Virus record (IMG/VR): IMGVR_UViG_3300020471_000006
Coordinates: 32,001 to 96,000 of that record
DNA length: 64,000 nucleotides
Direction: 5' to 3' (one strand)
Origin: a virus
Taxonomy: Duplodnaviria; Caudoviricetes
In this document: positions 20,161-62,543 of the stretch, in pieces
Layout of the letters: every line of letters begins with the position of its first letter
Position numbering within the stretch: position 1 is the stretch's first letter
Notes under the pieces: model-generated
Databases searched by the model: none
What the model was told of the DNA's origin: nothing
The model's input: only the letters and a program-made list of their open reading frames with translations
Translations under genes and position numbers: made by a program

Positions 20161-20560
20161 ATGCCTTATAGGTAAATTTGATAATCATAAACAAGCATTA
20201 CAATACCCTAGTAGATTTGCTAGAATACTAATTCATCACGAGGATATGGGTGATGGATGGATCTCTGGGTTCCAAGCATATTTCCATAACCCTAAACCCT
20301 ACAGGAAATATCGAATGTGGGTTACACCAATTGGGGAAAAATTTCTCGTACAAAATTTTGACTCAGAAGGTTTGACATACAAGGAAGGGTATGATACAAT
20401 ATTTGAGTGGAAGAATGACCATTGGCATGGTAAATCCCACGATAATGCACAATATACAGTTGATGCTATACTTGACAAAGACAGGTATTATGTGCTAGAT
20501 AAAGGTGACACTTGGGGTTCTCAATGGGGTCACTTTAAATTTGATAGATCGCCATCATAG
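20144..20560 (+). CDS. cpeT: Second CpeT/CpcT-like lyase
   Basis: FRECLIGKFDNHKQALQYPSRFARILIHH, PYR, WGS.WGHFKF. Confidence 0.72.
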   Translation: MIPFRECLIGKFDNHKQALQYPSRFARILIHHEDMGDGWISGFQAYFHNPKPYRKYRMWVTPIGEKFLVQNFDSEGLTYKEGYDTIFEWKNDHWHGKSHDNAQYTVDAILDKDRYYVLDKGDTWGSQWGHFKFDRSPS

Positions 20561-20622
20561 CACAGTGGTAGTGCAGGGCTTTTGTAAAGCCAAGGTCGGG
20601 GGTTCAAATCCCTCTGATGGCA
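20551..20622 (+). tRNA. tRNA-Thr (anticodon TGT), CCA not encoded
   Basis: GCCATCA/TGATGGC acceptor stem, AGTGGTA D loop, TT-TGT-AA anticodon loop, GGTTCAAATCC T arm. Confidence 0.92.
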
Positions 20623-20904
20623 TCCTCTTCTGAGGATAGGTGACGACACCTACATTCTGGACAGGGGTTCGATTCCCCTCATCTCCATTCAGGGGGATGC
20701 CACGGCTTCGACAGGGTATAAGGATCGGGACTGAAACCTGCTTGGATAAGCAAACCATATCTGCAAAAACAGATACACCTGCTGCGAATAACATCGTAGC
20801 ATTCTCACGTCCATTCAGCAAGGTTGCCAAGCGTGACCTCGTGGCTGTTTAGACCATAAGGTGAGATGGGGGTGAGGTTAGCCTTCTAACCCAAATAACC
20901 TACT
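20623..20904 (+). ncRNA. ssrA: Circularly permuted two-piece tmRNA
   Basis: T arm GGGGTTCGATTCCCC and acceptor 3' strand CATCTCC-A (20680-87) precede the 5' strand GGGGATG (20693-99) with G3.U70 pair and TTCGAC; tag frame ANNIVAFSRPFSKVAKRDLVAV* (20784-20852). Outer ends approximate. Confidence 0.88.
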
Positions 20905-20924
20905 GGGGGTGAGATACCCCCTTT
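20905..20924 (+). terminator. Intrinsic terminator after tmRNA
   Basis: GGGGGT-gagat-ACCCCC-TTT. Confidence 0.65.
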
Positions 20925-20929
20925 ATATT

Positions 20930-21475
20930 ATGCAAATATTAGATAATCTATTACCTAAAGAAGAATTTAAGAAAATTGAACATTTTCTAGTAGGTGGAGG
21001 TGGTCTTCCTTGGACTTACTTAAACTATAAAGTTTATGGACCAAATGAAGAGGATCTCGACAACTATCAGTTTGTTCATCCATTTTATTTTCAAGAATCT
21101 TGTAATGGACAATTTCAAACTGAAATATCTCCATATTTTGATTATGTCATACCTATTTTGAATAAACTTGAGTTTATTGCATTACATAGGGTGAAAGGAA
21201 ATCTAGAACCTTTAAAATCTAAAAGGTTTTATAGTGATTTTCATACTGATTGGGGTTATATGGAAGATGGCAAAAAACATGTATCTAATAATATGACAAC
21301 TGCTATCTACTATGTTAACACATGTGATGGTTATACTGAATTTGAAGACGGCACAAAAGTAAAGTGTAAGGCTAATAGGTTAGTAAAATTTCCATCTTCT
21401 ACTGAACATAGAGGTGTTAGTCAAACTAATAAACGTGTTAAATCTGTTATAAATTTAAACTTTTTTGAATTATGA
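20930..21475 (+). CDS. 2OG-Fe(II) oxygenase superfamily protein
   Basis: FHTD (HxD), TAIYYVNTCDGYTEF, EHRG, VINLNF. Confidence 0.82.
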   Translation: MQILDNLLPKEEFKKIEHFLVGGGGLPWTYLNYKVYGPNEEDLDNYQFVHPFYFQESCNGQFQTEISPYFDYVIPILNKLEFIALHRVKGNLEPLKSKRFYSDFHTDWGYMEDGKKHVSNNMTTAIYYVNTCDGYTEFEDGTKVKCKANRLVKFPSSTEHRGVSQTNKRVKSVINLNFFEL

Positions 21476-31000: not shown

Positions 31001-34000
31001 GTCTTCTAACACTACTGTTCATGCATTTGTCTCTGCAACTGCTGACGCTATAACCAGTGGTGGTAACTATGGTCATACATTTGTTTCTGCTAATTATGGT
31101 GCTGTAACTGCTGACATAACTGAGAATCTATTTACACCAACAGGAGCAAATTATGATCCTGCAACTGGAGATCTTACTCTAACAATTGGTAGTCATTCTC
31201 TTGCAGTTGGTGATGGTATTACTATTGATGATAACTCACTGACATTCAAGTGTCAGATGGATGAAGAGCAGTCCAATAAACTTTATCCACGTCCAGCATC
31301 TAAAGGTCTTACTGCAACTACTGGTACAACATATAATCCTACAACAGGTATTGTTTCTATTACAACAACTGCTAATCATGGATTAAAAACTGGTGACTTT
31401 GTTAAGATCGCTGATGGTGCTCTAACATTCAGTTGTGGATTTAATGGAGCAACAGGTACTGCTGCTGAGAAATCATATCCACGTCCTAGTGATCCTGTAA
31501 GTGGTACATGGATTAAGGTAACAGAGACAGGTGTTGATTCATTTGAGTTCCAATGTCTTGAAGCTCTACCTTCTACTAACACAGACACACATGCATTTGT
31601 AAGTGGTGTTGCTGATGGAATCACACGTCAGACTGCTACTGATAGAGTATCTGGAAGATCTGTAGATATTATCGCTAGAACTGCAAATACAATTACAGTT
31701 AATGTTGGTGGAGCTGGAGATAACCAGACATGGACACCTTCTGCTGCTGATTATAACTCAACTACTGGTGATCTTATTCTTACAATTGGTCAGCATGGTC
31801 TTCGTGAAGGTGCAGGTATTGTTCTTAAGGATAATTCACTAACCTTTACATGTTCTAAGGATAATCATACTTCTAACCATAGTTACCCACGTCCTGGAAT
31901 AGATCCATATGCAGGTGATAAATCAATCACTGTTAATAGTGTTGGTGCATCTATGCATAGTGTTAGTGGTGCAGAATATACTCCTGAGACAGGTGTTCTT
32001 AAACTAACAGTTAACAATCATGGATTCTCTAATGGTGATTACATCAAGTTAGATGATGAATCTCTAACTCTGACATGTGACCTTGATGGAAACGTAAGTC
32101 AGAAAAAATATCCACGGGCAGGATTTGACCCTGTAAGTTCAAGGTGGTTGAAGATTGCTGATAAGACTACCAATACATTTGAAGTCAATGTAGGAATCTC
32201 TTCTGATAAGTCAGTACATTCATTTGTATCTGCTGTTGCCAATGGATTACACAGACAGAATGGAACCATCACAGTTAACATTGGTGCTTCACCATTAAGT
32301 AACTACACACCTACTGCTGCATCTTATAATGCAGTCACTGGTGATATGGTTCTTACTATTGGAGTACATGATCTACAAAATGGTGAGAAGATTAAGATAG
32401 CACCTGATTCATTAACATTCCAGTGTGCTAAAGATGCTAATGCAACTAACCACACATATCCTAGAGTTACTGATCCAGCATACAATAGTGATCTAGAAAT
32501 TAAGGATGCTACAACTACAACAATCACAGTTAATGTTGGTGCAGCTGCTGCTAATGATCAGTATGATCATACCTTTGTTAATGCAACTGCTAATGCTATC
32601 ATCTACAACCAGAGATATACACATACATTTGTAAATTCTGTTGCTAATGCTGTTCATTTCGAACCAGCATCACCACATACATTTGTAAGTGCTATTGCTA
32701 ATTCAATCAAACATTATCCTACTGCTAATCATACATTTGTAAGATCAGTTGCTGGTAATATTCAGAAAGAAACTGGAACATTTACAGTTAATGTAGGTGT
32801 TGCTACTCTATCTAATCAGTATCCACACCAATTTAAGAGTGCGTCTGCTGGTGCTATTCAAACTGGTGGTGCATACTTCCATAAGTTTGTTAGTGCAGTA
32901 AACAATTCCATACACAAAGTATTTACAGTTGCTGGTAATCAACAGTATCATAATCAAGATTGTATTGATGATGTTGTTGATCTACTTGAAGCAGTTGCTG
33001 ATAACATTGCTTATGGTGGTAATGATAAGACATGGGATGCAGCATACTCATACAAGACTGGTGCTCATGTAGCTGGTGAAGAAGATGAAACCAATTATGT
33101 ATTTGAGCAAGCACGTGAAATGGCTGCTCAAGCACTTAGAAACCAGAAGATTCTTGTTACTGGACATCATGGTCTTCCACAGGTATTTGATAAGAGTATT
33201 ACATTCAATGAGGCTGATCCTCCAACAGATAGATTTGGTGATGCTCGTAACTTAGTTGTTGCTAACAAACTACTCATTGCTGATGAAGCATACGAGAGAA
33301 TGTTGGTACAACATCCTGGATTTGTTCCTCCAACAGGTAACCAACAGGATTGTAAGGATGACATCGTAGACTTCGTTGAAGAAGTTTCATATAACCTAGC
33401 ATATGGTGGTAACGATAGAGTTTGGGAGATGACCGATCTCTATGTACAGGGTATGGTTCAAGAGGTTGCTGGAGAAGAAACACAAACTATCCAAGCACTT
33501 AATCATGCACGTGATTTGATGATTCAAATCGCTAGGAATGAGAACATTGTAACACTTGGTTCTCATGGACGTACACAGGTTAGGGACACTACTATTACTG
33601 GTAGCGTTGCTCCTCATGTAAGTAACAGACATGCTGATGCTAAGAATCTAATCTTGGCTAACGTTGAGTTTGCAGCAGAGGTAGCATTGGGTAGAATGAT
33701 TGCTCAGTTCCCTTCATATTCATGGCAAGCTGGTTACAGTTCTGCTGATTGTTTAGATGATCTTAAAGATGTAGTTAAAGTTGTTGCACATAACACAGGT
33801 TATGGTGGTAACCATAGAGTATGGGATGCTGCTAACCTTTATGTTGCAGGTGCTCATGCTGCTGGATCTGAGAGTGAAACTATCTTTGCATTCAATGCAG
33901 TACGTGACATCATCAAAGAGATTGCTACTAACGTAGAAGTTACTGTTGGTGGTCACACATCATTAACTCAGACAAGAGATCTTACCATTACTAATGGTGT

Positions 34001-50647: not shown

Positions 50648-50841
50648 AGAAATTAGACAATCCGTATCTATTAGACGATAAGTTTATGATGCCAGGATTT
50701 GTTACTAAAGATCCTTATGGTGAATGGGCTGCTGTTCCTTGTGCTGGTAAGCATAACAGGTACATGGTCATACACAATGGTGAAATACTCAAGGCATGCA
50801 GTTATGATGTTGCCTTCAATTTAATGATGAAACACTATTAA
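50617..50841 (+). CDS. Hypothetical protein
   Basis: 74 aa, coupled to the MTase start. Confidence 0.6.
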   Translation: MAKRTRKPKLEKLDNPYLLDDKFMMPGFVTKDPYGEWAAVPCAGKHNRYMVIHNGEILKACSYDVAFNLMMKHY

Positions 50842-51773
50842 TGAAAGATTACATATTATTTGGTGACTGTCTTGACTCACTCAAGATAATTGCAAATGAA
50901 GAACAGAAGGCACGTATGTGTGTCACATCTCCACCTTACTATGGTTTGAGAAACTATGGTGATGAAGAGAAACAGTTAGGTCAGGAACAATCACCTGAAG
51001 AGTATATTGATAATATGGTTAATGTCTTTCGTTTAGTAAGAGATTGTCTTACTGATGATGGTACACTATGGTTAAACATAGGTGATTCATATTATAATTA
51101 CAGAAAGGATGGATGTATACCTAAACAAACATTCTCTCAAAACAGACAAGACTTACCTAAAACTACACCACGTAGATCTAATAAACTTGTAGGATACAAA
51201 GATAAAGATCTTATTGGTATACCTTGGATGCTTGCATTTGCACTACGTGCTGATGGTTGGTATCTAAGGCAGGATATTATATGGCATAAACCAAATCCAA
51301 TGCCAGAGTCAGTTAGAGATCGTTGTACTAAAGCACATGAGTACATATTTCTATTAAGTAAGAGTAAATACTATCACTATGACAACGAAGCAATCAAAGA
51401 ACCTGCAAAGGACTGGGGTACAAGAGACAGAACAAATGGAAAGTACCACAATCCAGGATCAGGACTGCAACCGCATACAGGTCTTACAAAATCATATACA
51501 AAACGCAATAAACGCTCTGTCTGGTCAGTAAATAAGAAACCATACAAGGGTGCTCACTTTGCTACATATCCCGAAGAACTCATTGAACCATGCATCCTCG
51601 CAGGTTCGGAGAAGGGTGATATAGTATTAGATCCGTTCATGGGTAGTGGCACTACCGCATATGTTGCTAAGAAACATAGTAGAGCATACAGAGGGTGTGA
51701 ATTGCATAAGGAGTATGACAGTTTAATAAGTGACCGTATTCGCACCATTCCAAACAAATTACCGTTATACTAA
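50841..51773 (+). CDS. DNA methyltransferase (N4-C/N6-A, beta class)
   Basis: TSPPY catalytic motif before DPFMGSGTT SAM-binding motif; WLNIGDSY, IIWHKPNPMPESV, HFATYP. Confidence 0.92.
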   Translation: MKDYILFGDCLDSLKIIANEEQKARMCVTSPPYYGLRNYGDEEKQLGQEQSPEEYIDNMVNVFRLVRDCLTDDGTLWLNIGDSYYNYRKDGCIPKQTFSQNRQDLPKTTPRRSNKLVGYKDKDLIGIPWMLAFALRADGWYLRQDIIWHKPNPMPESVRDRCTKAHEYIFLLSKSKYYHYDNEAIKEPAKDWGTRDRTNGKYHNPGSGLQPHTGLTKSYTKRNKRSVWSVNKKPYKGAHFATYPEELIEPCILAGSEKGDIVLDPFMGSGTTAYVAKKHSRAYRGCELHKEYDSLISDRIRTIPNKLPLY

Positions 51774-51776
51774 GAA

Positions 51777-52021
51777 TGTTGAGAGGAACTGATGTGGTTC
51801 CTATGCCCCAAACCTACTGACTAGTCTGACTTAGAAGCAGACACATGACCGTTGGTAGAAACCTATTACTGCACATGACAGATGGTTGAGACTCTTAATT
51901 ATACTTCGTAAAGGAGTTAGCATAGAGTCAAGTGGTGGGGGTTCAGGTGTAAGCGATTCCCATAGGGTAAATTTGGGCAACTGGGTGAAACCTAGATCAT
52001 TGCCCCACGTTCCTCTCAACA
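51777..52021 (+). ncRNA. Unassigned ~245-nt structured RNA
   Basis: Perfect 13-bp closing helix TGTTGAGAGGAAC/GTTCCTCTCAACA, several nested internal helices, about 46% GC by hand count, TATACT 5 nt upstream. Confidence 0.7.
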
Positions 52022-52040
52022 CCCCATTATATTTTGAACG

Positions 52041-52460
52041 ATGCCTTCTACAGTATCACAACAACAAAAAGCAAGATTCTTTGCTGAAGGACACACACTC
52101 CCTACATGTGTGAATGATGGTTGTAATAATAATGTACAGGTAAGAGAGTGGAAGTATTGGTCATTCAAATCAGAATGTTCTAGTTGTGCCACTGCACGTA
52201 AGAAAGGAGTTGATAGACCTAATGTTACAAGACATAAAAAGAACTATTGCGAAAACAACGATGGTCATCTAGGATGGACATGTCCTGTATCCACATTCGT
52301 AGGATTTGAGACTAGTCTTGACTTAGACCATTTAGATGGTGATCATCATAACAATGTTCCTAGTAATGTCAAGACATACTGTAAACTATGTCATGGACGT
52401 AAATCAATATTAAATGGAGACTGTAACAGTAACAAATCATCATCGAGGAGTATTGGATGA
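52041..52460 (+). CDS. HNH endonuclease-like protein, Cys-rich
   Basis: LDLDHLDGDHHNNVPSNVKTYCKLCH plus additional Cys pairs. Confidence 0.8.
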   Translation: MPSTVSQQQKARFFAEGHTLPTCVNDGCNNNVQVREWKYWSFKSECSSCATARKKGVDRPNVTRHKKNYCENNDGHLGWTCPVSTFVGFETSLDLDHLDGDHHNNVPSNVKTYCKLCHGRKSILNGDCNSNKSSSRSIG

Positions 52461-53236
52461 TCATACATGATGATGCATTAAATCATTTAACTAAGATGGA
52501 TGGAGATAGTATACACCTTACGTGTACATCTCCTCCATATTTTAATGCAAAGGCATACGCACAGTGGCCAACATATGATAAGTATCTACAATTCCTTGAG
52601 GATATATTCCGTGAAGTTCACAGAGTCACAGTACAAGGAAGGATGTGTGCTGTTAATTTATCACCAGTAATACAAGCACGTGAGTCAAGAGCACATGAAA
52701 GTAAGAGACTTGCGATACCATTCCACTTCTTTAGTATTATGGAGAGATTGGGATGGCAATACATTGATGATATTATATGGTTGAAACCAGAAGGATCTGC
52801 TGTTAATCGTAACGGTGGATTCTATCAGCATCGTAAACCAGTAGCATACAAACCAAATCTTGTTACAGAGACTATATTAATATTCAAGAAGCCTGCACCA
52901 TTCCTTATAGATAAGACAGTGCGTTCCTATGCTCCTGATATATTAGAACAATCATTAGTACCTGATGGTTATGAAAGATCAAATGTATGGCAGTTTAATC
53001 CTGAGACTACATCAAAGCATTTAGCACCATACCCTAAAGAACTATCAGATAAGATTGTACAATACTATTCATTTGTGAATGATGTTGTTCTTGATCCGTT
53101 CATGGGGTCAGGCACTACTGCGATATCATGTCTAGATCATGACAGAAAGTATATTGGTATTGAAATTCATGAAGAGTATGTTAAGATGGCAAATGATCGT
53201 ATTAAGCGTCACACACCACTTAAGAGGTTTCTATGA
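52457..53236 (+). CDS. Second DNA methyltransferase (N4-C/N6-A, beta class)
   Basis: TSPPY, DDIIWLKP, HLAPYP, DPFMGSGTT, YIGIE. Confidence 0.92.
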   Translation: MIIHDDALNHLTKMDGDSIHLTCTSPPYFNAKAYAQWPTYDKYLQFLEDIFREVHRVTVQGRMCAVNLSPVIQARESRAHESKRLAIPFHFFSIMERLGWQYIDDIIWLKPEGSAVNRNGGFYQHRKPVAYKPNLVTETILIFKKPAPFLIDKTVRSYAPDILEQSLVPDGYERSNVWQFNPETTSKHLAPYPKELSDKIVQYYSFVNDVVLDPFMGSGTTAISCLDHDRKYIGIEIHEEYVKMANDRIKRHTPLKRFL

Positions 53237-55064: not shown

Positions 55065-55463
55065 ATGACCGTAGCAGAAAGAACTCAAGACCTAGTAAAT
55101 GCTCTTGAGAATAACTACAAAGAATACACAAGACAGGGATACATCAGAAATCCATGTGATTATAGTTTAAGGAAACTTGAAGAGATTGACAACGGCACTG
55201 CTAAACTAGTTAAGTTTAGAATACAAAGTGGTCGCAAGTATTACAAACTAATTCAACAGGACTATGATACATTCCAAGATAGAAATGAGTATCGTGATGG
55301 TGGTGTACATGCATTTGTAGATAAAAAGACAGGTGATGTGTTCAAACCAGCAGGTTGGCAAGGACCAGCAAAGTATGCTAGATATAATTTGTTAGATGAA
55401 ACATCTTATCAAAAAGCATTAGCAAGAGCAGATTGGGCAGGTGGTTATCTCTATTTGAGATAA
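55065..55463 (+). CDS. Early hypothetical protein
   Basis: GRKYYKL...VHAFVDKKTGDVFKPAGW; AAAGGA RBS. Confidence 0.7.
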   Translation: MTVAERTQDLVNALENNYKEYTRQGYIRNPCDYSLRKLEEIDNGTAKLVKFRIQSGRKYYKLIQQDYDTFQDRNEYRDGGVHAFVDKKTGDVFKPAGWQGPAKYARYNLLDETSYQKALARADWAGGYLYLR

Positions 55464-55576
55464 TAATAGAGGCAAGGATCTATGGTTGTCTGTGTTCAGC
55501 ATGGAAATTACGTCCTGTAAGTCCTCTTGACTTTCTACTCATTCTCTGTTACACTACAATTAGCACTTTTATCATC

Positions 55577-55870
55577 ATGTCAAAAAAGTTCTACAATCAA
55601 CAATTAAAAGCACAACGCTTGTCACCACTGGTAGTATCTCATGTTAAAGAATTACTCTCTCCTATTGATACGAACAACCAACGCTCTGCATTTACCGTTC
55701 GTATTAATACTAACGCTGATCCTGAGTCTAGAGATTACAGAGCATTTTGGAATTACCAATCTCGTTTCACTCTTGAGTTTGTTAAAGCAGTAGAGTCCTT
55801 GATACCACAGGGTTTACGCCTTGTTGAGTATGATCATTTGAATAATAAACTATCATTGGAGCGTGTGTAA
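55577..55870 (+). CDS. Hypothetical protein
   Basis: Start reassigned to ATG 55577 (MSKKFYNQ). Confidence 0.55.
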   Translation: MSKKFYNQQLKAQRLSPLVVSHVKELLSPIDTNNQRSAFTVRINTNADPESRDYRAFWNYQSRFTLEFVKAVESLIPQGLRLVEYDHLNNKLSLERV

Positions 55871-56104
55871 ATGGACATTATTCTAGAAAGATTTCCGTAT
55901 CGATACGTACAGGATGGTACACTTGAAATCAATGGTAAACCAGACTATCGTATTCAGAAATTCAATGAGTATACTAGACGATACAATGACATGTATTATC
56001 TAGATAATGCAATGCAATTAGATGCATGCTTAGAAGACGTAGAGTACACCAAATGGTTAGATCCAGCAGGTGTTCCAGCATATAGGCATGAAGAAGATGA
56101 ATAA
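55871..56104 (+). CDS. Hypothetical protein
   Basis: 77 aa; ERFPYRYV...YRIQK...MY.LDN..QL. Confidence 0.65.
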   Translation: MDIILERFPYRYVQDGTLEINGKPDYRIQKFNEYTRRYNDMYYLDNAMQLDACLEDVEYTKWLDPAGVPAYRHEEDE

Positions 56105-56324
56105 CATTGATGCACTACGCATCTCTCAACAGAGGGATGCGATTTGTGATTGGGTTGAAGATCGATTCTTCCAATTAATTAAGGAAGAACGACATGATGA
56201 TGCCATAGATTTTGCTGATGAGTATATTGAGTGGATGAATCCCGACTTATACATAAACGAGTCCACTCATTTTTATAACGCAAATGAGCTCACTGAACTC
56301 TATGAATCAATCACAAATGGATGA
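56097..56324 (+). CDS. Hypothetical protein
   Basis: Overlap-coupled; ICDWVEDRF motif. Confidence 0.55.
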   Translation: MNNIDALRISQQRDAICDWVEDRFFQLIKEERHDDAIDFADEYIEWMNPDLYINESTHFYNANELTELYESITNG

Positions 56325-56591
56325 CTCCATGAGAGAACTGGTTCTACAATATTGTGAGGCACAAGCCAATCATGATGATGAACTAGCACAACGTATTCTA
56401 GCAGAGATTGAAATGATTAACAAACTTTGCAATAAAAAGACACATGACTGATGTTAATGGTTGGGAGAGAGAATACCTCTCGGATGCATTTAATGTGATT
56501 AGCAAGCGAGAGAGGCAGATCCTTGAAGGATCACCTCTCAAATCACATGAAGGCATGATTTATGGTAAAATGTATGCTGCATGGAAGAAAC

Positions 56592-57182
56592 AACATGATA
56601 TACCTTGAGAATGCAAATGTTAGTGAAGTATTCAGTGATTTCATAATTGATGTTGAATTTGATAATGATTTAAAACAACTTACTGATGATGTCTATAAGT
56701 TGAAGGATCAGTATACTTCTCAAGGATACAGCAACGTCGGAGGTTGGCAGTCGCCAGGATTTTCACCTCAATCACAAGTCCCAGAAAGTCTCTCTAAACT
56801 ACAGTGGGATGTGTATGAATTTGTTCATACTGTTATTGGTAGAAGATTTAACAAATCTATTAGTAAAGAACAAATAGGTTGGTGGACTAGTATTAATGAG
56901 AAGCATTGCTATAATAGTATACATCATCATGGTCGAACAGATGTGATTGCGATAGCGTACATAAAAGCACAACCTAACAGTGGTGATCTTGTAGTATCTC
57001 GCAATGACGGTTCAACTTACACACGATTAGATGATGATAACACTTATTCAATACCTGCTAATGCTGGTAGGTTAATTGTATTACCAGGTCATGTATGGCA
57101 TTACGTCAATGAGAATAATAATAATGATGATCGCATAAGTGTATCATATAACTTTTATGTACAATTAAAGTGGAATGGTTAA
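56592..57182 (+). CDS. 2OG-Fe(II) oxygenase (TIGR02466-like)
   Basis: SNVGGWQS, HHHGRTD, HVWHYV, RISVSYN. Confidence 0.8.
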   Translation, partial: NMIYLENANVSEVFSDFIIDVEFDNDLKQLTDDVYKLKDQYTSQGYSNVGGWQSPGFSPQSQVPESLSKLQWDVYEFVHTVIGRRFNKSISKEQIGWWTSINEKHCYNSIHHHGRTDVIAIAYIKAQPNSGDLVVSRNDGSTYTRLDDDNTYSIPANAGRLIVLPGHVWHYVNENNNNDDRISVSYNFYVQLKWNG

Positions 57183-61596: not shown

Positions 61597-62543
61597 TATC
61601 ATTATAAGGGGTGGCAACACCCCGATTTTTTTTAACCTTACCCCTCTAATACTATGGCACGTTACATTGCGTCTTATTGCAATGAAGAGTACATGACGTT
61701 GTTTTTGTTTCTTTTTGCAAAGAAAGCGTGGGATCATGTTGATTCATGTTATAATATAGAACACCCTACGGAGACTGATCATGGACTGGGAAGAGTATTT
61801 AAAAAATGAACTTGCTTACTATGATGAGCACCCCGAAGAGGATGCCCCTATTATAGAGGCACATACAAATGATTGTGCAATGATTGAGATTTCTTACATG
61901 GATTGAACCAGTTCACAAAGTGGCACAACTCATGTAGATAAGACAAACCCATTTGCTATAATTAACTTGTTGAGGCAAACGCTAGGCAAGGGTGAGCAAC
62001 AATTCAGAAGGATCTTAAATGACCGTGTATTGAACATGGTGATCGTACTGTTTTCCTTTGCTCTTTATGTTTGGAGACCTCTAGTACTCACAGTTTGAAA
62101 CTGTCAACTCAAATTTGAGTTGCTTGAGTTTTGAAGTTGTAAGTCCTCAACACTCAAACCATTTCATTTATTACATGTCTGAAACCGTTCGAACTCTCAC
62201 AATCACCGAAGCAGAAGAGACTGCATTGGTTGAGATCATTCGCTACTTCAACGATATGGGTTTACCTGATAACGTTGATAGCACAGATTACGACACACTA
62301 ACTGAGAAGGTGTGCGAACCAGCATTTTGGGAGTACAACTAATGGTACAATCTGAATTCTTTGGCAGAACTTTTTGGTTGGGTAAAGATAACCAACTTAA
62401 GAGTGCTGCCACTTTTATTGAAGGTGGAGCAGACTATGACAATTTTGATTATGTCTGCGATTGGACTGACTGGGAGGGTGTCAACTACTATGAGTTATTT
62501 GATGTCATCTCTGAACTAATCACACAAAAGGAGGCACGACTAG

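Follow-up and report, generated by a model that had tools for sequence, protein, structure and literature searches.

A 245-nt structured RNA occupies most of the gap between a DNA methyltransferase gene and a small HNH-type nuclease gene in a T4-like marine cyanophage. The 64,000-nt stretch analyzed here (the window; positions 32,001 to 96,000 of IMG/VR record IMGVR_UViG_3300020471_000006) lies within a complete virus record of 202.5 kb, and the cultured phages nearest to it by DNA comparison are P-SSM2, P-SSM5 and P-SSM7, which are T4-like and infect Prochlorococcus. The RNA, encoded by the + strand at 51777-52021, belongs to a family of structured RNAs that T4-like marine cyanophages carry and that has not been named so far. 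Its structure is strongly selected. It is an accessory element, occurs once per genome and is restricted to phages by a search of cellular genomes; it is promoter-proximal in many genomes and tolerates insertions at one of its helices, P4. We favor, with a probability of about one half, the reading that it is an accessory, cassette-borne early 5′ leader that would act in cis on the transcript carrying it.

A covarying structured RNA fills the gap

The gap (51774-52040, 267 nt) runs from the methyltransferase stop codon (51771-73) to the ATG of a 139-amino acid (aa) open reading frame (ORF) at 52041. An initial annotation, made from the letters and their ORFs, had proposed that a single RNA fold almost fills it, and both folding energies and the family described below bear this out. 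The + strand of the gap has a minimum free energy (MFE) of −83.4 kcal/mol, compared with a shuffle mean of −68.1 kcal/mol (z = −3.07; 0 of 200 shuffles equal), whereas z is only −1.39 for the − strand. For 51777-52021 the family-informed structure has −76 kcal/mol, compared with an MFE of −82.8 kcal/mol. The closing helix of 13 bp, P1, is perfect as the annotation had drawn it, and it covaries. The G+C content (GC) of 51777-52021, put at about 46% and above its flanks, is 45.3%; this does exceed most flanking sequence (34-39%), but the last ~350 nt of the upstream methyltransferase gene reach 42-43%, more than the other flanks.

Homologs are numerous. The exact 21-mer at 51940-51960 is present in at least 119 IMG/VR contigs and also in P-SSM2 and P-SSM5. 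A covariance model (CM R1) finds one copy in the genome of the window; P-SSM2 and three long contigs each have a single strong match, whereas P-SSM7 has no match. The copy in P-SSM2 lies at 56702-56818 of its record. In the window it matched the 3′ half of the RNA (60.8 bits, E = 5e-15); with a 136-nt insert in between, the model aligned that half only, and the 5′ half was placed by complementarity within P3. Cellular genomes (596 Gb) contain five exact matches to the 19-nt invariant strand of the core, about the number expected by chance, and these score on that stretch alone. By this test the family is thus confined to phages.

The consensus core, taken from an alignment of 27 distinct minimal members (A1), is about 116 nt long and consists of P1, a short linker, P2 (GUG/CAC), P3 (6 bp), P4 (CCCC/GGGG), joining strands and P5, arranged as a three-way junction of P2, P3 and P5 that is closed by P1. 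The invariant 19-nt strand leads from P4 back to P3, a near-invariant 8-nt strand precedes P5, and 27 single-stranded positions of the core are invariant (Table 1). In this alignment 98.3% of cells form a standard pair, compared with 38-58% when the 3′ partners were slid by 1-3 columns, and compensatory changes occur at 16 of the 33 pairs, compared with 2-5 in the slid controls. None of 500 shuffles matched any of the observed covariation measures. The changes reach most helices: one pair of P1 is AU in nine members, GU in nine and GC in eight; P2 has GC 16, AU 7 and GU 3 at one pair and UA 16, CG 8 and UG 3 at the second; and P3 is seen as four different helix sequences. P4 can form in every member and shows no covariation because its pairs are invariant.

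Since G·U pairs are common and A·C pairs are rare, the folded RNA is the + strand. Among variants, stop codons occur in every + frame and the lengths of the P4 region cover all classes modulo 3, so the stretch is not coding; a protein-coding reading was ruled out by these stops and by insert lengths that are not multiples of three.

Comparison with the family also sorts the inner helices of the initial annotation. GTGG/CCAC (as GUG/CAC), CCTATG/CATAGG, GTCTG/CAGAC and the P5 hairpin are all supported by covariation, and CCCCA/TGGGG is possible in all members but invariant. Two further helices, CTAC/GTGG and TGACT/AGTCA, give way to others: the family has CUACUGAC/GUUGGUAG and AACC..GGUU instead, and TGACT/AGTCA relies on a 40-nt insert that is missing from relatives.

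Table 1. Features of the RNA and its flanking genes, in window positions.
Feature	Position	Strand	Evidence
Upstream N6_N4 DNA methyltransferase, 310 aa, complete	50841-51773	+	Pfam PF01555, 3.7e-55, profile positions 2-217 of 221
−10-like box TATACT, which overlaps the final codons and stop codon of the methyltransferase gene before the gap	51766-51771	+	Fixed spacing to P1
Whole structured RNA, 245 nt: core (A), nested module B and 40-nt hairpin	51777-52021	+	Fold z, CM R1
P1, 5′ strand (partner 52009-52021)	51777-51789	+	13 perfect Watson-Crick pairs, retained in MFE
P2, 5′ strand GUG (partner CAC, 52006-52008)	51794-51796	+	Covariation, GUG/CAC with ACG/CGU
P3, 5′ strand CCUAUG (partner 51961-51966)	51800-51805	+	5 of 6 pairs compensatory, 100% of cells paired
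P4, 5′ strand CCCCA, base of the expansion site (partner 51936-51940)	51806-51810	+	Pairs invariant
Module B, nested in P4	51811-51935	+	Consensus fold of 11 relatives
Helix Ba of module B, CUACUGAC/GUUGGUAG	51814-51821/51851-51858	+	Covariation
Helix Bb of module B, GUCUG/CAGAC, loop ACUUAGAAG	51824-51828/51838-51842	+	Covariation
Helix Bc of module B, AACC..GGUU (51860-51863/51884-51887) around CUG/CAG	51860-51867/51882-51887	+	Covariation
40-nt hairpin within module B, module G-like	51890-51929	+	Missing from close relatives
Joining strand J4/3, invariant	51941-51960	+	All columns invariant in A1
P3, 3′ strand	51961-51966	+	Covariation, as 5′ strand
Joining strand J3/5, near-invariant, GUAAAUUU	51967-51974	+	Alignment A1
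P5 hairpin GGGCA/UGCCC, inner stem capped by invariant GGUGAAACC	51975-52005	+	Two outer pairs and one inner pair compensatory
P1, 3′ strand (partner 51777-51789)	52009-52021	+	As 5′ strand
HNH-type nuclease ORF, 139 aa; neighbor, outside the RNA	52041-52460	+	PHROG HNH endonuclease families
N6_N4 DNA methyltransferase, 259 aa; overlaps the HNH stop by 4 nt	52457-53236	+	Pfam PF01555, 1.2e-41

P4 is an expansion site for modules that also occur alone

Hairpin P4 takes up inserts of widely differing length. The stretch between the P3 strands spans 14-231 nt in 117 elements and exists in 65 distinct versions; about 40 of the 117 elements hold a short loop there, and the others hold conserved modules that also occur alone elsewhere. 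The expansion in the window (136 nt) is module B, for which the consensus of 11 relatives has three covarying helices with compensatory changes at seven pairs. Module B stands alone in P-SSM7, where it follows a methyltransferase gene, behind its own promoter and with its own closing purine/pyrimidine helix, and lone copies head various genes in many contigs. A likeness of the module B loop to the L11-binding loop of 23S rRNA was rejected: covariation fixes another register, and the shared run is unconserved.

The 40-nt hairpin inside module B is missing from the close relatives L079, L022 and L177 (L numbers denote the compared loci), whereas L108, L085 and P-SSM2 have similar hairpins whose stems covary. 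Contigs from RNA libraries show the joint 51889>51930, that is, the sequence without this hairpin. The joint matches the DNA of relatives that lack the hairpin, and thus reflects an indel in DNA and not splicing; a spliced-out hairpin was ruled out on this ground.

Further modules, named C, D, E, F and G, show compensatory changes between their copies and lie within the loops of B, within P4, or beside the core on its downstream side. Module C has the layout GGAUCUAUGGUUG-hairpin-...UGUAAGUCC. Module E is an H-type pseudoknot (L023:4110-4185, L005, L013, L184 and about 27 other contexts) whose stem 1 covaries (e.g. CAUGUC/GACAUG, CAACCC/GGGUUG and CUAGUC/GACUAG); in stem 2, GGUGGUUUC pairs with GGAAACCACC. 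Its loops CCUUUGG and GAGGCGAUA are also conserved, and in some loci stem 2 leads into a U-run.

Several module copies lie apart from the RNA of the window. A lone copy of module C at window positions 55471-55527 (GGCAAGGAUCUAUGGUUG-hairpin-AAAUUACGUCCUGUAAGUCC), a module that is nested in P4 or in the B loops of relatives, overlaps the start of a doubtful ORF with a TTG start (55433-55870). Module F (L001:1795-1860 and many loci) has a conserved GAGGAGAUGGAUGUGCCUC...GAACUAACAUCC with a Shine-Dalgarno-like site and an AUG, and its hairpin covaries (CGGUU/AACCG vs. GUGGG/CCCAC); the module may encode a leader peptide or may function purely as RNA. The stretch at about 61947-62146 of the window is a further family member: a TGCTATAAT promoter is followed by TTGAGG and then by a conserved module (GGCAAACGC.AGGCA.GGGUGAGCAAC ... 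UUUGGAGACCUC) that recurs after module E in L045, L062, L097 and L119, and the stretch ends near a UGUAAGUCC motif. Around gene 070 of P-SSM2, where the RNA carries no annotation, about 1 kb of unannotated sequence is nearly all modules (B-like, C, F, core A and D; L001:1580-1880 and 2332-2900, or 55815-56116 and 56567-57133 of the record). Modules overlap the 43-aa ORF 071 of P-SSM2, as well as N-terminal extensions given to some other called ORFs, and these calls may be spurious.

An RNA with invariant junction strands beside covarying helices, and with a peripheral stem that takes large inserts, could also be a self-cleaving ribozyme or processing signal that cuts early polycistronic transcripts. 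Modules B, C, D and E might be further processing elements, in the way that different small ribozymes cluster in phage DNA, and the side-by-side arrays of different unnamed structured modules would suit this. Any cleavage would be a hypothetical activity, and no Rfam 15 ribozyme model matches; a hammerhead-like CUGAUG between P1 and P2 was considered and dropped, as it varies in relatives. We judge this alternative improbable.

A broader proposal, which we consider rather unlikely, is that the core is a new functional class of RNA of ribozyme or riboswitch grade and one of at least seven unnamed covarying modules (A-H) that behave as nestable, interchangeable cassettes. If so, modules swapped at promoters and inserted into loops would amount to a modular RNA toolkit for host takeover by marine phages.

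A predicted promoter lies at a fixed distance from the RNA in many contexts

The initial annotation had pointed to a TATACT −10 box from which transcription would begin at the base of the closing helix, and many family members share the spacing of this box. Of 106 distinct upstream contexts, 41 (39 of them with TGn) have a −10 hexamer whose end is exactly 9 nt from the GAG of P1, and TATACT in the window has the same 9-nt spacing. A frequent order in these contexts is a terminator hairpin, a T-run, TGnTAT(A/T)AT, seven bases and then GTTGAG.... This spacing puts the expected start of transcription on the first paired base of P1. A promoter scan omitted the box at 51766-71 because it has no good −35 element.

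What follows the RNA is far less uniform. An ORF starts about 20-45 nt past P1 in about 57 of 105 contexts, and other RNA modules lie there in the remainder. The downstream ORFs of the family form about 30 unrelated clusters with no common expression platform seen, and orthologs of one basic-protein gene have the core in front of them in L112 but module B in L023 and P-SSM7. The RNA of the window has no terminator after it, the HNH ATG is 20 nt past P1, and few canonical terminators are found within 4 kb downstream.

Six marine RNA libraries contain part of the stretch, and contigs from four of them, mapped to the region, cover the RNA. In run X18 the summed depth is 1100-1400 over the conserved 3′ half, compared with at most 63 alongside. 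These contigs show that the stretch is present in RNA libraries and nothing further.

Under the favored reading of an early cis-acting leader, host RNA polymerase would start at the −10 box so that the first transcribed base already lies in P1, and the 5′ end would be sequestered in that helix. The RNA would form the 5′ end of an early mRNA for HNH and the methyltransferase. Its invariant junction strands would make a pocket for a conserved partner, whether a protein, RNA polymerase, the ribosome or a small ligand, and binding of this partner would determine how stable the transcript headed by the RNA is, how far it is read through or how well it is translated. The RNA may also accumulate as a stable fragment. 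Transfer between genomes would take place with early-promoter cassettes of the promoter-early stem-loop (PeSL) kind, recombining at shared promoter and P1 sequences. In favor of this reading are the fixed −10 spacing, the ORF that begins shortly past P1 in about half of the contexts, the exchange of core and module B before one gene, the allele series described below, and marine metatranscriptome contigs that cover the RNA and continue beyond P1.

Several observations weigh against a leader that acts in cis. The −10 box of the window lies inside coding sequence and lacks a good −35; some RNA-library contigs begin in the upstream gene. The start at P1 is thus a predicted one, and DNA carry-over is possible; contigs cannot show ends, and the X18 peak may reflect only the many strains that share the conserved stretch. 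Downstream genes are diverse and about half of the contexts continue with other RNA modules instead of an ORF, so a free-standing RNA fits this content as well as a leader does. Relatives without the RNA retain the same HNH gene (see below), so a leader would be dispensable for HNH. Finally, the pocket and its partner or ligand are putative.

A free-standing RNA would act in trans as a small RNA or as part of a ribonucleoprotein, for example as a decoy or sponge made early to occupy a host factor (a defense sensor, a ribonuclease or some RNA-binding protein), with each nested module as a separate binding unit. The RNA has a predicted promoter of its own at P1, its core is invariant, and it is single-copy and accessory; in many loci module E follows the core, and a U-run in L023 and L048 completes what look like promoter-RNA-terminator units. 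The summed depth of the conserved half is very high in one metatranscriptome, but this figure is no measure of abundance. In the window, no terminator separates the RNA from the ATG 20 nt past P1, and the partner of a trans-acting form would be a putative one; we hold such a form to be rather unlikely.

A predicted start at +1, a promoter-proximal position and a three-way junction with invariant joining strands are also what might be expected of a riboswitch aptamer, or of an RNA polymerase-binding antitermination element like put, that controls read-through downstream. The antitermination RNA put of phage HK022 and 5′-terminal stabilizing hairpins such as that of the ompA leader are structured, lie at or near +1 and act in cis on their own transcript. 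The RNA described here may be analogous in function and is predicted to start similarly near the +1 of an early transcript, but has no sequence relation to them. Its single copy and the terminator hairpins upstream of relatives fit such an element; the lack of a consistent downstream gene or expression platform, the few canonical terminators within 4 kb downstream and its optional presence among close relatives do not. We rejected a riboswitch class in the usual sense, as no single functional class of gene lies downstream and there is no common platform, and we give the wider proposal little credence.

The HNH gene is an unrelated mobile neighbor

The 139-aa ORF downstream of the RNA contains HLDGDHHN and CxxC motifs and matches PHROG HNH endonuclease families (E = 3.7e-5 to 1e-3). 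It also matches the HNH region of I-HmuI weakly; a PDB sequence search gave marginal matches only, and no Pfam domain was above cut-off. The initial annotation had suggested that this nuclease is possibly a partner of the RNA. Co-occurrence speaks otherwise: by motif and by CM, the RNA lies upstream in 6 of 57 loci of HNH homologs (L177-L233), and HNH homologs are found at 3 of about 120 RNA loci. The HNH gene pairs with the methyltransferase instead. An ortholog of the 259-aa methyltransferase (65-99% identity) starts 0-36 nt past HNH in 44 of the 57 loci, which stem from many sample sets; most of the others are cut or have a different downstream gene. In L118 the HNH-methyltransferase pair lies 4 kb from the RNA and has no RNA in front of it.

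The site itself exists in several alleles. Between the upstream methyltransferase stop (with TATACT) and the HNH ATG, L180, L183 and L185 have nothing but a spacer of about 20 nt, the window and L177 have the core with nested module B, L184 has a minimal core plus module E, and L186 has a B-like module plus module E. In L035, where the upstream methyltransferase is 98.7% identical and the RNA is present, the 3′ flank differs and matches that of L101, in which module D follows the RNA and HNH is missing. Together, co-occurrence and this allele series indicate that HNH and methyltransferase form a mobile two-gene unit of their own, and that the promoter site is prone to recombination and carries the RNA as an optional cargo. 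Thus, the HNH gene is the RNA's unrelated mobile neighbor. Its adjacency to, and co-inheritance with, the methyltransferase are observed; the activities of the two proteins are predicted ones. The pair looks like a restriction-modification-like or self-protecting homing unit of lytic phages.

A partnership with HNH, as guide, antitoxin or mobile unit, has in its favor that the two adjoin here and at the loci of five or six relatives, but 51 of the 57 HNH loci lack the RNA and about 115 of 120 RNA loci lack HNH. Two related suggestions of the initial annotation fare no better. The profile of retron reverse transcriptases (PF00078) matches nothing across the complete 202.5-kb genome, although controls matched; the RNA does have a closing helix, P1, which could be compared with the a1/a2 repeats of retrons, but many RNAs have such a helix. 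A 6S-like decoy was rejected since the consensus is a three-way junction with a branched expansion, not a long helix with a central bubble, and Rfam 6S models do not match. HEARO/omega RNA likewise has no Rfam match here, and the ORF of 139 aa compares with about 400 aa or more for IscB-type proteins with RuvC and HNH domains. We consider any of these relations, to HNH, retrons or 6S RNA, extremely unlikely.

The alleles could also be read as those of a DNA mobile element resembling a miniature inverted-repeat transposable element, with P1 as terminal inverted repeats and an internal structure without function as RNA. Close relatives that either have or lack the element at a given site, nested insertions, and the same P1-like ends around different interiors (A or B) would all be expected of it. 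Against this stand the deep internal helices, which covary with G·U pairs that fit one strand only, and the invariance of 27 single-stranded positions. In addition, there is one copy per genome, no target-site duplication was seen and no transposase was found, and we regard such an element as very improbable.

Comparison with known RNAs and mobile cassettes

No known class accounts for the RNA, as the initial annotation had supposed. The Rfam search that it proposed (Rfam 15, whose families include 6S, HEARO, group I introns, small ribozymes, riboswitches and Yfr RNAs) found no match in the gap even at E ≤ 10. The minimal form from P-SSM2, searched at the same threshold, gave nothing but a chance match to a snoRNA (14.6 bits), and L001, L002 and L017 at E ≤ 1 gave only a chance snoRNA match (E = 0.96). 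Across 143 kb of 17 family loci no match reached the gathering threshold, with modules C-G also unmatched, and nothing was found in the P-SSM7 module. A group I intron was ruled out: the methyltransferase is complete, relatives without the RNA keep both flanking genes unchanged, and Intron_gpI does not match. The literature on the motif, on cyanophage noncoding RNAs and on marine small RNAs contained no description of it, and it is possibly included among 10,006 automatically predicted viral csRNAs (PMC10690425).

The closest parallel in organization is with PeSLs, mobile regulatory cassettes of other T4-type phages, which have been described from coliphage and vibriophage genomes with small ORFs as their cargo (PMC2839356, PMC4122927). 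As in PeSLs, a terminator stem-loop and an early sigma-70-type promoter lie directly before the RNA element in relatives, the promoter at fixed spacing; the cargo is inserted, deleted or replaced at one site among close relatives; and that site belongs to the early region, a variable part of the T4-like genome. Unlike in PeSLs, the cargo is a conserved structured RNA with modules nested in one another, and in the window the promoter overlaps the end of a gene, lacks the stem-loop and consists of the −10 box only.

Cyanophages already have several Rfam motifs, namely PhotoRC-II, wcaG, manA and the glutamine riboswitch (PMC2864571; PMC9602691). The RNA described here resembles these in being a structured RNA in the 5′ regions of T4-like cyanophage genes, mostly from marine metagenomes, but it is larger, has an expansion site, lacks a consistent downstream gene class and matches none of them in sequence or structure. 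GOLLD, ROOL and HEARO/omega RNA are complex multi-helix RNAs of phage DNA whose roles are unknown or were recently found, and HEARO adjoins an HNH-containing ORF. Compared with these, the core is far smaller (116 nt) and has no Rfam match, and the neighboring 139-aa protein is HNH-only, lacks a RuvC domain and shows no co-occurrence with it.

Structured RNAs in early cassettes of phages are a known kind; the family itself, and the nesting and swapping of its modules, are undescribed as far as we have found. T4-like cyanophages are among the most abundant viruses of the ocean, and their early regions have been treated as arrays of small unknown ORFs. Part of that space consists of conserved structured RNAs named in no database, one family of which has more than 100 members. 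Recognizing them helps to correct annotations in which probably spurious small ORFs lie across these RNAs, and separates out the HNH-methyltransferase cassette, which is of interest by itself. For RNA biologists, the 116-nt minimal form (as at L112:8423-8538), with its natural alleles with and without the RNA, makes a candidate for study, and P-SSM2 on Prochlorococcus NATL1A or NATL2A provides a cultured pair.

ARAGORN detected no transfer RNA (tRNA) or transfer-messenger RNA (tmRNA) in the gap; the only such genes it found are at 20551-20943. There, tRNA-Thr(UGU) adjoins a permuted (two-piece) tmRNA gene of the cyanobacterial type, as identified by Rfam (cyano_tmRNA, 128 bits) and by an ARAGORN tag peptide that ends in ...KRDLVAV.

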